Positions 1,846-6,190 of a stretch of DNA of 23,887 nt are shown here, one piece after another; position 1 is the first letter of the stretch, and each line of letters starts with the position of its first letter. Below the pieces are notes generated by a model. The model was not told the DNA's origin. It ran no database searches and saw nothing but the letters and a program-made list of their open reading frames with translations. Position numbers and translations under genes: made by a program. This DNA is from a virus: the IMG/VR virus record IMGVR_UViG_3300011008_000259; one strand, written 5' to 3'.

Positions 1846-2533
1846 ATGTATGAATTTAATTCTATATAAGAAGTGCTAAGTTACATATTCGAAGATAAGA
1901 ATATTACTATTATTAATATTCCCGGAACTCCTCATCCATGGTTTATTGTAGATGAGATTAGAAATGCGTTAGGATATATTAGAAATGAAGTCTTAGGAGT
2001 TCTAAACATTCACGAATTACGTATTTTATGAAGTCGCACCATGAATGATGGTGCGACTTCATATTTAACTAGTAGAAGTTTTAGATGTTCTAAATATTCG
2101 CGAATTGCATGTTTTAGTAAGTCACCCCATGAATGATGGGGTGACCTCCTATTTAACTAGTATTAGTGCTTATCGTCCGACTGTAATGATTATATCATTA
2201 CCAGGATTATTTGAAATTATAATGCGTTCGAGAATGCCTAAAGCTAGAGAATTTCAGCATTGGCTATATTTCTCTGTATTACCTACACTGTATTATAATC
2301 CTCAACTCGTTCAGCAGATTAATACTTTAAATACTGATCTTCAGCAAAGTAGATATTTAACTAATGCTTATCGTAATGAGTGTATCGATTTACGTAAAGA
2401 GAAGATTAAACTTAATAAAGAAGTTAATTCTCTTAATGAGAAAATCGAAAGCGATGATAATAGTTTTTATGATTTAGCGAATATTTGTCAGTTTTATAAA
2501 GATTTATTAGACGAAAATGGAATTTATTATTAG
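1846..2533 (+). pseudogene. Bro-N (BRO family N-terminal) domain gene disrupted by an in-frame TAA at codon 8 and an 88-bp tandem duplication that frameshifts it
   Basis: ATG at 1846 with SD AGAAGG, then MYEFNSI followed by TAA at 1867-1869. The same frame then continues EVLSYIFEDKNITIINIPGTPHPWFIVDEIRNALGYIRNEVLGVLNIHELRIL and ends at TGA 2029-2031. The C-terminal half of Bro-N (ISLPGLFEIIMRSRMPKAREFQHWLYFSVLPTL) is in the +1 frame inside ORF 2105-2533. Conceptually deleting one 88-bp unit (1999-2086) rejoins the two halves into one continuous Bro-N-like frame. Confidence 0.6.
1999..2174 (+). repeat. Two tandem 88-bp direct repeat units (1999-2086 and 2087-2174), each containing a perfect 10-bp-stem hairpin
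   Basis: Unit 1 contains GTCGCACCAT-gaatg-ATGGTGCGAC and unit 2 contains GTCACCCCAT-gaatg-ATGGGGTGAC. The units are about 85% identical, and the two stem differences between copies are compensatory on both arms. Confidence 0.8.
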
Positions 2534-2652: not shown

Positions 2653-5385
2653 ATGATGTCAGATATTACTAGCAAACATTTTTATTGTCTGGCTAAAGAA
2701 TCTAATTTATATGTATTAGATCCTTATAAGCATGGAAGAGATAATAAGTTATTATTTTATTCTCATCTTAAAGATGCTATTGATGCTATGCCATCATTTG
2801 CCGAAAATGAATTATATTCTGTATATGTACCTACACTGATAGATAAATTAAAAATACATGATGCTGAATATGGAGTAATGATAGCTACTGAACCGATAAG
2901 AGTGAAATTTTGTGGTTTATGTAGAATAGAAAAAAATAGTGATTATTTTGATAGGTTTGAACAACGTCTTATAGTAGATGAATCTTCTAGAAATCTAGCT
3001 AAAGTTATTAGTGATGAATATAGAGATAATGGACCATTAAAAGATCTTGAAGATTTTAGTTATTTGCTCGATCATACTCCATTAGATAAAATATATTTAT
3101 CATCTGATTGGCATCTATTTAAAGAAAAATATAAAAAAGAAAAGAATAGAGTTAATATAGATAAGATAATAGATTGGTGTCAAGATAATATTAAACCTAG
3201 TGATATATTTATGTATCTTGGAGATATAAGTTATAGATTTGCTTCATTACAAGATCAACAAAAATCTGCTAAAATAATGAAATCTATACCTGGTCATAAA
3301 TGTTTAATACTTGGTAATCATGATGTATTTATTGGGCAAGAATATTATAAAGATGCTGGGTTTGATTATGTATTTGAAGAATATGAATGGAGAAATATAA
3401 TTTTTTCTCATAGGCCATTAAAAATGGAACTTGATAAAGATAAACTTAATATACACGGTCATATGCATGAAGAAGTTACTTATAGAACTAGTAATGGAGA
3501 TCATCATGTTAATGTATATCCTTATTTTTATAATAATAAACCTGTAAATTTAAAATTTATATTAGATCATAAACAAGAATTAATGAAAGACCATGTATGG
3601 GAACCTAACTATGGTTACGGTGAAGGAGCTTTACCTGTGAGGAGTTACTTTCAAACATTGCACAGTTCCTCGGGTAATATTATAATTAATGAGTTGGCTT
3701 CTAGATATGGACGTGAATCTAGAAGATCTGTAGTATATTTCTCTAAAAATATTAATAGTAAAACTATTAAAGATATGATAGAAAAATTATCTATACAGCT
3801 TAAAAATAAAGTTGCTATAAAATTACATTTTGGCGAGAAAGGTAATAAGAATTATCTTAATCCTGAATTATTAAAAGATACTGTAGAATATTTAACTAAT
3901 AAAGATTATGATTATGCTTTAGTAGATTGTAATACCACATATGGTGGTTCTAGAGATACTACTGAGGGACATCTTAAAGTTGCTAGAGAGCATCATTTCT
4001 CTGATAATTATAAAGTAGAGATTTTAGATGCTAATGGTGGTATGACATTAAGTAATCCTGAATATAATAAGATAGAAAAAGAATTAGATAAAATAAATAC
4101 TAAAGAAGATATTAAATTATATCAGTTAAAATCTACACCCGGAATACATATTAAAGAAATTGATATTGGTAGCGGAATAAAAGATTACGGTAGTATGATA
4201 GTATATACCCATTTTAAAGGTCATGAAATGGCTGGATTTGGTGGAGCTATTAAGAATATTGGTATGGGTCTTGCTACTGGAAGAACTGGTAAGATGCAAA
4301 TCCATAGAGATTGGAAATCTGATAATTTATTCTTAGAGAGATTAGTAGAATCTGCTAATACTATAACATCATTCTATGATGGTAAAATGATATTTATTAA
4401 TATATTAGCTAACATATCATTGGAATGCGATTGCCATGGAGATTCTAAAGTGAAACCTGTGATGGACGATATTGGTATTGTTGCTGGTAGTGATATTGTT
4501 GCTGTAGAACAAGCATCTATAGATCTTATTAGAAAAGCTTCTGATAATAAAGAACTTATGGAACAAATATCTAATATCGGAGCTTATCATGCTATAGAGT
4601 ATGCTGAATGGTTAGGAATGGGTAATAGAGAATATATATTAAAAGATATTAATTGTAATAATATTAATATAGATGAATGTATACAAACTCATATGGGTAA
4701 ACATGTAACTGAATCTAGTATAGATGAATCTTTCTTATTATCTGATGATGATTTAATGTATAATTTCGATAAATTTTTATCTGGTGAGACTAATATGGCT
4801 CTTGTAGTAGGATTCTCCGGATCTGGTAAAAGTACTATAAGTGCTGCTATGAAAATGAATTCTAATTTGACTGTATTTTGTTCATTAGATGAATTGATTA
4901 ATATTGCTGATGGATTAATACAATTAAATCAAGCAAGTACTATAATGCAAAAATATTATAATCAAGTCGGAATTAAGCTATTACAATCTAGTGATTATTT
5001 AGATTATTCTTATAAAGCTGTTAATATATATTATTCTTTTATAAAATGGATTGATGATGTTGCTATGCATAGTAGTAATATTAAATTTGTTGTTGAAGGT
5101 CTCTGGCCATTATGTTTTAATGATAGGCCTGAAAGGTTTCAAAATATATGTGTTATTATCAAAGGAACTTCGTGGTTAACATCTACTTATAGAGCAGCTA
5201 ATAGAGATCAAAATAGACAAGATATTATGGCTAGATATGGTATGAAAGTATTTAAAAATGCTTTCCTCCGTTTTATAGAATATATTAAAAATAATTCATA
5301 TAGATTTGATAATAAAGATTTAATGATTAAAAATATAACTAAGTGGAGAGAATATTTTACTGCAAAACAAATAATGAAAAAATAA
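2653..5385 (+). CDS. Large multidomain protein: N-terminal unknown region, calcineurin-like metallophosphoesterase, DUF362-like domain, C-terminal P-loop kinase-like domain (polynucleotide kinase-phosphatase-like)
   Basis: 910 aa; SD AAAGGAG. MPP motifs are SSDWH, YLGDISYR, LGNHD, HRP and HGHMH. The P-loop is GFSGSGKST with a downstream SLDEL, which resembles T4 Pnk-type kinases. The central region carries KLHFGEKGN, THFKGHEMAGFGGAIKNIGMG and CDCHGD, which I remember as DUF362-like patterns. Confidence 0.6.
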   Translation: MMSDITSKHFYCLAKESNLYVLDPYKHGRDNKLLFYSHLKDAIDAMPSFAENELYSVYVPTLIDKLKIHDAEYGVMIATEPIRVKFCGLCRIEKNSDYFDRFEQRLIVDESSRNLAKVISDEYRDNGPLKDLEDFSYLLDHTPLDKIYLSSDWHLFKEKYKKEKNRVNIDKIIDWCQDNIKPSDIFMYLGDISYRFASLQDQQKSAKIMKSIPGHKCLILGNHDVFIGQEYYKDAGFDYVFEEYEWRNIIFSHRPLKMELDKDKLNIHGHMHEEVTYRTSNGDHHVNVYPYFYNNKPVNLKFILDHKQELMKDHVWEPNYGYGEGALPVRSYFQTLHSSSGNIIINELASRYGRESRRSVVYFSKNINSKTIKDMIEKLSIQLKNKVAIKLHFGEKGNKNYLNPELLKDTVEYLTNKDYDYALVDCNTTYGGSRDTTEGHLKVAREHHFSDNYKVEILDANGGMTLSNPEYNKIEKELDKINTKEDIKLYQLKSTPGIHIKEIDIGSGIKDYGSMIVYTHFKGHEMAGFGGAIKNIGMGLATGRTGKMQIHRDWKSDNLFLERLVESANTITSFYDGKMIFINILANISLECDCHGDSKVKPVMDDIGIVAGSDIVAVEQASIDLIRKASDNKELMEQISNIGAYHAIEYAEWLGMGNREYILKDINCNNINIDECIQTHMGKHVTESSIDESFLLSDDDLMYNFDKFLSGETNMALVVGFSGSGKSTISAAMKMNSNLTVFCSLDELINIADGLIQLNQASTIMQKYYNQVGIKLLQSSDYLDYSYKAVNIYYSFIKWIDDVAMHSSNIKFVVEGLWPLCFNDRPERFQNICVIIKGTSWLTSTYRAANRDQNRQDIMARYGMKVFKNAFLRFIEYIKNNSYRFDNKDLMIKNITKWREYFTAKQIMKK

Positions 5386-5494
5386 TATTTTATTATAGTA
5401 ATAACATAAAAAATAATAAAAATCTATTCTCTATTTATCTTATTTAGATTATTATTATTTATATAAATTATTTTAATAAAAAGGAGTCTTAACT

Positions 5495-6190
5495 ATGTTA
5501 GGCGGATATTTAATTAAAGTTGTTCCTGGTAAACTTCCTCAGAAAGTTGCTTCTGGTTTTGATAAGGTTTTTAATGGTTTTACTGGTGCTAGCTATACTC
5601 CCATTGCATATCTCGGTCATCAGGTTGTTAATGGAATTAACCACGCAGTTCTTTGTGAACAGAATCTTGTAACTGCTAAAGATGTTAAGGGTATTGCTAT
5701 TGTCGTTCTTAATGAAAAACCCGGTGATATCGGTGGAGAATCATTAGAGCTTGTTGAGATTAAATCATGCTTCACTGATAAAGGCATGAAACTTGGTGGC
5801 ATTAACATTACTCCTTCAGCAGAGATTCCTGAAGATGCTATGAAAGTTTGGAATAAGCATTTCGGAAGTGGTTTCTTTGGTGCTTCGAATAAACCATTTG
5901 CTCTTCTTGCTACACAGGTTGTTCATGGAGTTGCTTATTTCTATGCTGTTGAATCAACTATGATTGTTTCACCTATTGGGAATGACGGTCTTGTTATGAG
6001 TGCTGGCAATAATAAGTCAATTACTATTGTTAAACTCTTTAGCGAATATCCTGAGATGCAGTCTATGACTATTCTCGAAGGTGTTGAAGATGCTATTCTT
6101 GAGGGTACTGGAGAAGCAGCTCCTGGAGTGCTTGGACCTGTGCTTGTTGATAATCAGAAGAATGTTGTTAAGTACGCTTTTAATTGGTAA
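5495..6190 (+). CDS. Highly expressed 231-aa protein made of two tandem ~95-aa repeats, each with a cystatin-like Q-V-V-x-G motif
   Basis: SD AAGGAG. Repeat 1 is GFTGASYTPIAYLGHQVVNGINHAVLCEQ and repeat 2 is GFFGASNKPFALLATQVVHGVAYFYAVES. Codon usage differs sharply from the neighbours (GC about 38%; frequent CTT, GTT, GGT and CAG). Confidence 0.5.
   Translation: MLGGYLIKVVPGKLPQKVASGFDKVFNGFTGASYTPIAYLGHQVVNGINHAVLCEQNLVTAKDVKGIAIVVLNEKPGDIGGESLELVEIKSCFTDKGMKLGGINITPSAEIPEDAMKVWNKHFGSGFFGASNKPFALLATQVVHGVAYFYAVESTMIVSPIGNDGLVMSAGNNKSITIVKLFSEYPEMQSMTILEGVEDAILEGTGEAAPGVLGPVLVDNQKNVVKYAFNW

Follow-up and report, generated by a model that had tools for sequence, protein, structure and literature searches.

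Locus and Gene Product

Within a 23,887-nt stretch of viral DNA (IMG/VR record IMGVR_UViG_3300011008_000259, here called the window), the open reading frame (ORF) at 5495-6190 encodes a 231-aa protein, which we consider very likely to be a divergent member of the cystatin superfamily. The identical protein has been found, in the same gene order, on a 23.9-kb ENA contig and on a JGI contig. The window has a GC content of about 27% with all long ORFs on the + strand, and its features are collected in Table 1. The Shine-Dalgarno-like site ahead of the start codon does not represent a special expression signal, as many other window genes have similar sites, and a scan of the sequence for promoters and terminators has given no signal above shuffle expectation.

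An initial annotation of this DNA had described the product as two repeats that align with each other, which has been borne out by a local BLOSUM62 score of 69 for the two halves; none of 1000 shuffles has reached this value (27.2 ± 4.8, maximum 51). The repeat motif given in that annotation is correct in its main part, since GF.GAS..P.A.L..QVV.G[IV].[HY] matches exactly twice (residues 28-50 and 126-148), but its end part, ..[LV]..E, has been mis-registered, and the full pattern matches nowhere; a Glu sits five residues past [HY] in both repeats. Two or more Q.V.G matches occur in only 0.2% of composition-preserving shuffles of the protein. Its only two cysteines are C54 and C92, the former of which is Ala in 48 of the 56 phage homologues that have been aligned (alignment A1) and on which all conservation counts are based.

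Table 1. Features of the window and of related loci, with conservation as the number of the 56 aligned phage homologues (AF2, AlphaFold2).
Feature	Position	Strand	Description and basis
Cystatin-like gene	5495-6190	+	ATG start, 231 aa; ORF reading
Shine-Dalgarno-like AAAGGAG	5480-5486	+	8 nt ahead of the ATG; sequence
Cystatin-like domain 1	5495-5785	+	Residues 1-97; beta1 5-11, helix 16-25, beta2 32-44, beta3 48-58, beta4 64-74, beta5 84-94; AF2 model
N-terminal trunk Gly3-Gly4, after Leu2	5501-5506	+	G3 55/56; position 2 L/V/F/I
QVVNG, L1 hairpin loop of domain 1	5621-5635	+	Residues 43-47, between strands 32-44 and 48-58
Cystatin-like domain 2	5786-6091	+	Residues 98-199; beta1 103-108, helix 113-123, beta2 130-142, beta3 146-158, beta4 171-182, beta5 188-198; AF2 model and internal repeat alignment
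Domain 2 trunk Leu100-Gly101-Gly102	5792-5800	+	G101 56/56, G102 55/56; position 100 L/M/F
QVVHG, L1 hairpin loop of domain 2	5915-5929	+	Residues 141-145, between strands 130-142 and 146-158
C-terminal tail, probably disordered	6092-6187	+	Residues 200-231; low AF2 confidence
KYAFNW, C-terminal end of the protein	6170-6187	+	Local form of the family LGYAFTW tail motif
142-aa Bro-N ORF	2105-2533	+	Bro-N match covers only the last 40 of 96 model positions
Giant 910-aa protein	2653-5385	+	phrog_547 phosphoesterase, DUF362, AAA-type ATPase; Pfam/PHROG matches
821-aa Major-Vault-Protein-like protein	7539-10004	+	MVP_shoulder 1.1e-23, Vault_3 3e-8, weak Band_7; Pfam
Giant 1254-aa protein	10840-14604	+	GNAT, phrog_547 phosphoesterase, Transglut_core/DUF553, DUF6582; Pfam/PHROG matches
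Bro-N + KilAC antirepressor, full	18435-19223	+	Family match
LGxPLGEWP loci	L042:12157-12756, L046:10803-11153, L047:8093-8419, L048:1782-1997; loci L100-L297		Ruminant-gut jumbo-phage contigs
ECF-type sigma factor loci	L072:8603-9451, L076:9271-9639, L087:6496-7095, L088:966-1526, L090:1729-2340		Beside lipoprotein genes of bacterial relatives

Predicted Structure

The AF2 model of the 231-aa protein (predicted local distance difference test, pLDDT, 85; predicted template modeling score, pTM, 0.80) consists of two beta-alpha-beta4 domains, followed by a tail of low confidence from about residue 200, for which mean pLDDT values over blocks of ten residues have been found at 43-57 from residue 201, with residues 214-230 below 50. 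The cystatin topology, in which an N-terminal strand is followed by one long helix around which a five-stranded antiparallel sheet is wrapped, is present twice in the model. The cystatin-like alpha+beta wedge, on which the initial annotation had staked its cystatin hypothesis, is thus predicted in both halves, each time with QVVxG in the first hairpin loop. With respect to structure, the complete two-domain model is matched best by multidomain and tandem cystatin-fold proteins, and Foldseek has placed a two-domain sesame phytocystatin (E 5.6e-4), fetuin-B and latexin at the head of the list, with cystatins E/M and C and stefin B as the next matches (probabilities 0.87-1.0).

Homology to Cystatins and Stefins

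Family scans of the window protein and its homologues with Pfam, PHROGs and NCBIfam have returned no match, and homology has therefore been shown transitively. Searching 1.84 billion representatives clustered at 50% identity with the A1 profile has yielded 1837 relatives at E ≤ 1e-3, of which 855 are left at E ≤ 1e-10; more than 140 clusters are homologues of the 231-aa protein. The distant relatives, for which E values to A1 go down to 1e-105, are bacterial surface lipoproteins and SLH- or LPXTG-anchored proteins with one to six domains of the consensus GGW...AFxKA...GxxYxPVAYLGxQVV[AS]GTNY...LC...VYxDLxGN. Among 72 of these, 17 match the Pfam family Cystatin (PF00031) and 13 match SQAPI; the relative P0179, which reaches A1 with an E value of 8e-38, scores 45.3 bits on PF00031, and P0188 scores 23.2 bits (cut-off 22.2).

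The step from the phage form to the bacterial form has been made by aligning A1 with a profile of 41 single-domain bacterial sequences (A3) in hhalign, which gives a probability of 99.8% and an E value of 2.8e-29 over 89 columns, i.e., the whole domain. A3 itself leads to solved structures, since 16 of its 18 matches among all PDB sequences are cystatins or stefins. The best of them, Cystatin-A2 (8gqq, E 0.003), is aligned from the GG trunk through the last strand, and in the A3 alignments to PDB sequences the GG pairs with the GG of Cystatin-A2 and of a tick cystatin; against human stefin A, A3 gives a probability of 79%. In direct hhalign comparisons with five cystatins, probabilities of 7% for repeat 1, 72% for repeat 2 and 61% for both pooled have been obtained; here QVVNG aligns with QVVAG of stefin A, and QVVHG with its QVVAGTNY. 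The QVVHG segment has also been aligned to CsStefin-1 by a hidden Markov model (HMM). The idea of a cystatin-like QVVxG hairpin, as put forward in the initial annotation, is accordingly upheld by the predicted fold and by the transitive homology that connects the protein with Pfam Cystatin as well as with stefins and cystatins of solved structure. A phmmer search against the PDB gave chance-level matches only, such as an acyl-CoA thioesterase at E 0.32, and these have been discarded.

Conservation of the Wedge Motifs

The wedge glycines and QxVxG, which are membership features of the cystatin superfamily, are present in both domains. By its position before beta1, Gly3-Gly4 would correspond to the N-terminal Gly that is conserved in stefins and cystatins. 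The hydrophobic residue ahead of the trunk glycines in each domain resembles the P2-like position of cystatins. In the first hairpin of domain 1, position 43 is Gln in 33 and Lys in 23 homologues, and V45 and G47 are kept in 53 and 54, respectively; for the corresponding hairpin of domain 2, Q141 has been found in 51/56, Y148 in 55/56 and G145 in 56/56. The second hairpin (L2) of domain 1 carries a conserved NEKPGD segment, in which N73-E74-K75 is kept in at least 51 homologues and P76, followed by G77, in 36. This segment recalls the LPGQ of stefin A, and a Pro-Trp is found in neither of the two L2 hairpins. The bacterial relatives share the trunk, hairpin and core motifs with the phage form. 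The conservation in the 56 phage homologues fits an inhibitory wedge.

Family Distribution

The cystatin-like gene has been found in at least 45 IMG/VR viral contigs or loci, mostly on contigs of 100-500 kb. One of these has 281 kb, and another, of 388 kb, holds a tRNA synthetase and a Gp23-type capsid gene, from which the homologue is 5 kb away. The closest relative is on the 120.8-kb contig of L008. Some contigs carry two copies, and some family proteins are four-domain duplications. Of 267 family proteins, 192 have the start of domain 1 no later than residue 12; this leaderless form is the phage type, whereas the bacterial type has a signal peptide or lipobox. Among species-representative genomes, relatives occur in metagenome-assembled genomes (MAGs) from the ruminant gut (Fibrobacter, Christensenella, Clostridia, Oscillospiraceae, Synergistaceae), and the isolates with relatives are Oribacterium and Lactobacillus. 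Neither the protein (tblastn) nor the window in its full length (megablast) has a match among 50,697 deposited phage genomes. The gene is one of a family of accessory genes that ruminant-gut jumbo phages carry.

Bacterial stefins, one of them in Oribacterium, have been known from a genome survey of 2009, in which phages are not mentioned (Kordis and Turk, PMC2784779). On five MAG contigs of Synergistaceae/Fretibacterium (L067, L068, L070, L071, L077), a single domain has been detected in ORFs of 93-135 aa, with the match opening at a conserved (I/L)LGGWNLDE, which in L070 stands at the very start of the 93-aa ORF. These short forms are the nearest in size to canonical stefins.

C-Terminal Tail Peptides

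Many homologues end in LGYAFTW and/or in LGxPLGEWP with a free carboxyl terminus, and the pattern [YF][AS]F[TN]W, often at the very C-terminus, is present in 94 of 267 family proteins. The LGxPLGEWP end is shared with an otherwise unrelated family of about 180 aa, here called X, which comprises at least 665 clusters and at least 146 IMG/VR loci and has the PLGEWP end in 57 of 81 copies. Eight proteins combine X, at either the N- or the C-terminal side, with the tandem cystatin unit in one chain, and in five loci X is adjoining or nearby. A DNA-pattern scan for LGxPLGEWP followed by a stop codon has identified at least 120 stretches. Among the 120 matches listed, 81 belong to the X family and 17 to the cystatin-like family (both numbers include two fusions). 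The 24 that belong to neither include phage lipoproteins (about 17), a 97-aa family with two copies, and ORFs that are short or truncated. The peptide is common to at least four unrelated families, i.e., X, the tandem cystatin-like proteins, the phage lipoproteins (208-240 aa) and the 97-aa family. The PLGEWP-tailed lipoproteins have no Pfam match; their VDAVTGE segment is reminiscent of PepSY, although this resemblance is unsupported. The LGxPLGEWP tail may be a sorting or docking signal.

Genomic Context and Base Composition

The GC content of the cystatin-like gene is 38.1%, which is the window maximum jointly with the ORF at 17484-18359. The figure of about 38% in the initial annotation has been confirmed, but not the strongest codon-usage shift that had been read from it, as the GC content at third codon positions (GC3, 0.23) lies inside the range of the other window genes (0.10-0.35). 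It is the first position (GC1) that differs, with 0.56 vs 0.30-0.46 in the other genes, because Gly, Ala, Val and Pro make up 35% of the residues of this protein compared with 10-22% elsewhere. The 38% GC is an effect of amino-acid composition and not of codon bias, and the conclusion that the protein is very abundant has therefore lost its basis. The codon-usage outlier of the window is instead the ORF at 17484-18359 (+ strand, 291 aa), with a GC3 of 0.35 vs 0.10-0.24 elsewhere and an overall GC content of 37.9%; its product matches neither Pfam nor PHROG families.

The gene had further been placed next to a giant protein, with two papain/transglutaminase-fold domains, to which a functional link was proposed. 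The 1254-aa protein is indeed encoded on the same strand, but its gene starts 4.65 kb downstream with four ORFs between, and Pfam puts Transglut_core and DUF553 on one and the same region (residues 725-797). Among about 50 homologous loci, none has a relative of this transglutaminase domain within 10 kb, and a pairing of inhibitor and target with the giant neighbor is therefore unsupported. No relative of the 1254-aa protein has been found in IMG/VR; the few partial matches to it fall on the phosphoesterase, 158-306 and DUF6582 regions, outside the transglutaminase-like region. The phosphoesterase and DUF6582 parts of the giant proteins have partial relatives in a few other jumbo-phage loci.

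In the same set of about 50 loci, no other window gene occurs within 10 kb of any homologue, and this includes relatives of the vault-like gene. Nor has a conserved neighbor been detected across 48 phage loci and 43 genome loci, antisense shadow ORFs being discarded. The sole recurrent neighbor is a gene for a sigma-70 factor of the extracytoplasmic function (ECF) type, which lies beside the cystatin-like lipoprotein gene in seven bacterial genomes and hints at envelope-stress regulation of the bacterial relatives. The two Bro-N genes of the window would fit a contig derived from a phage or a mobile element. For the vault-like protein, three IMG/VR relatives with 45-47% identity have been found, none of them on contigs with the cystatin-like gene; phage homologues of the Major Vault Protein were first reported in a preprint of 2023 (10.1101/2023.11.10.566534).

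Possible Functions

We favor, with a probability of roughly 0.55, a two-headed inhibitor of the stefin type that has no leader and is directed at papain-like cysteine peptidases, for which we infer the activity, the peptidase class, the bivalency and the site of action. In each domain, the hydrophobic-Gly-Gly trunk, the first hairpin with QVVxG and the second hairpin would form a wedge that reversibly closes the active site of a cysteine peptidase of the papain type (clan CA, family C1) at its cleft, while itself remaining uncleaved, and one molecule might hold two enzymes at once. Given the lack of a leader peptide, the protein would putatively act in the cytoplasm of the infected cell or be released at lysis. 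Such an inhibitor is plausible in the rumen, where cysteine peptidases dominate proteolysis; they have been described as the major type among bacterial peptidases and as important for protozoa too (PMC6908469). Several results weigh against the inhibitor. Even at E ≤ 10, PF00031 misses the window protein and its 56 close homologues, the A1 profile searched directly against the PDB reaches a stefin at an E value of 0.86 only, and the hhalign comparison with the five cystatins spans only 17 columns around QVVxG. With respect to the motifs, the replacement of Q43 by Lys in 23 homologues has to be considered, as have the L2 hairpins, which are devoid of the Pro-Trp of type 2 and, in domain 2, are variable with indels. 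A papain-like peptidase gene has not been found linked at any of the phage or bacterial loci examined. Finally, monellin, latexin, fetuin-B and SQAPI are cystatin-fold proteins that do not inhibit cysteine proteases.

A cystatin-fold module for binding or structure that is not inhibitory appears possible but doubtful; it could be, e.g., a virion-associated or assembly adaptor that is recruited via its C-terminal tail, and the QVVxG hairpin would be kept because the fold requires it or because it binds a partner that is not a protease. Non-inhibitory proteins of this fold exist in monellin and CRES, and the invariant residues of the phage family include positions in the beta-sheet (G31, Y34, A38, Y39, G41, N49, Q56). 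An adaptor would also account for the conserved tail motifs of the family, for the LGxPLGEWP end of three or more unrelated phage families, which would be expected if the peptide served docking or sorting, for the tandem unit being fused or adjacent, in about 9 of 48 loci, to the conserved but unrelated domain X of phages, and for the homologue close to the Gp23-type capsid gene. Folding alone, however, hardly explains the conservation of all three wedge elements, which extends over both domains and to the bacterial relatives as well; furthermore, there is no conserved neighborhood of structural genes and no match to a structural PHROG family, the window protein itself is without the PLGEWP tail, and the GC argument for its abundance is void. 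A combination, in which jumbo phages use leaderless, bivalent stefins against host or environmental cysteine peptidases and these share with the X family, the phage lipoproteins and the 97-aa family a portable C-terminal peptide (LGYAFTW/LGxPLGEWP) as a sorting or docking signal, seems unlikely to us. In it, the peptide could, e.g., recruit the proteins to the virion, to a compartment of the phage or to a partner that they have in common.

Inhibition may also be directed towards another protease class, for which the cystatin fold offers precedents in latexin (metallocarboxypeptidases), fetuin-B (astacin/meprin metallopeptidases) and SQAPI (aspartic proteases) as well as in the legumain-binding site of cystatins C, E/M and F. 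The 13 of 72 relatives that match Pfam SQAPI, with P0179 above the cut-off of that family too, point in this direction, as does the family-specific invariant N49-H50 (His in 53/56), which replaces the classical N-Y in domain 1. Yet SQAPI and Cystatin are sister Pfam families that both match the same QVVxGxNY segment, the combination of trunk Gly and QxVxG in the form found here is missing from latexin and fetuin-B, and the hydrophobic residue before the Gly-Gly trunk suits the S2 preference of papain-like enzymes, so that we regard another class as quite improbable. Least probable by far is that the protein exclusively serves, as inhibitor or as chaperone, the transglutaminase/papain-fold domain or domains of the 1254-aa protein, with expression from the same gene cluster. 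Transglutaminase cores have a papain-like fold, the giant does contain the Transglut_core/DUF553 match, and the two genes lie 4.65 kb apart on one strand; these facts are set against the four intervening ORFs, the lack of a relative of that domain within 10 kb in the homologous loci, and the wide spread of the cystatin-like gene compared with a giant for which no IMG/VR relative has been found. To our knowledge, no cystatin is established as an inhibitor of transglutaminase-like domains.

Comparison with Known Systems

The inhibitor as favored here resembles the stefins (type 1, MEROPS I25A; human A and B, Fasciola, Clonorchis), which likewise have domains of about 95 aa with neither signal peptide nor disulfides. 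The leaderless phage ORF starts at the trunk with MLGGY, i.e., with M-x-G(G) vs the M-x-x-G of stefins, and the common topology is beta1-helix-beta2-QVVxG-beta3-beta4-beta5, with a Pro-Gly in the second hairpin that can be compared to the LPGQ of stefin A. Stefins are the best sequence-level PDB matches and are among the fold matches at 16-19% identity. Unlike them, the phage-encoded protein has two domains per chain and a tail of 30 aa, is missed by PF00031, often has Lys for the Gln of hairpin 1 and has N-H in place of N-Y. With two domains and a tail in 231 aa, it therefore contains stefin-like domains but is not a canonical single-domain stefin.

The bacterial stefins and lipoproteins with one to six GGW...QVV[AS]GTNY domains are homologous to the phage form, commonly have tandem domains as well, and come from gut and rumen habitats (Clostridia, Oribacterium, Lactobacillus). 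Because of their signal peptides, lipoboxes and SLH or LPXTG anchors they are located outside the cytoplasm, in contrast to the leaderless phage form, to which the tail motifs and the NEKPGD second hairpin belong. Tandem cystatin-fold domains are also known from potato multicystatin, two-domain phytocystatins, kininogen, latexin and fetuin-B; these proteins are, however, eukaryotic, secreted or vacuolar, and sequence identity does not exceed 13%. Latexin and fetuin-B use other surfaces to inhibit metallopeptidases. In the latexin family, two cystatin-like subdomains are joined by a helix, and metallocarboxypeptidases are inhibited via the subdomain interface; no sequence match to latexin has been obtained, and the QVVxG and trunk motifs of the phage protein are not latexin features. 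The only virus-encoded cystatins noted in the 2009 survey are those of polydnaviruses (bracoviruses; PMC2784779), which illustrate that viruses are able to capture and use cystatins. They are insect-derived, single secreted domains of type 2, encoded by a eukaryotic virus and acting on insect host proteases, and they are unrelated to phages.

Significance

The relatives collected here make up a large unannotated branch of the cystatin superfamily, with 1837 representatives, that Pfam, PHROGs and NCBIfam have missed, and the family merits a profile model that would end its annotation as hypothetical. In huge ruminant-gut phages, its leaderless tandem form recurs as an accessory gene. With the gene at 5495-6190, a known superfamily of inhibitors gains a new variant that is borne by phages, lacks a leader and has its domains in tandem. 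Were the protein inhibitory, a class of protease inhibitors would be added to the phage repertoire, and a cysteine peptidase would be relevant in infection, be it for host defense, for turnover or for virion survival after lysis. Should the joint reading of stefin and tail be true, the phages would possess both a new class of protease inhibitor and, in the tail, a new phage targeting signal.

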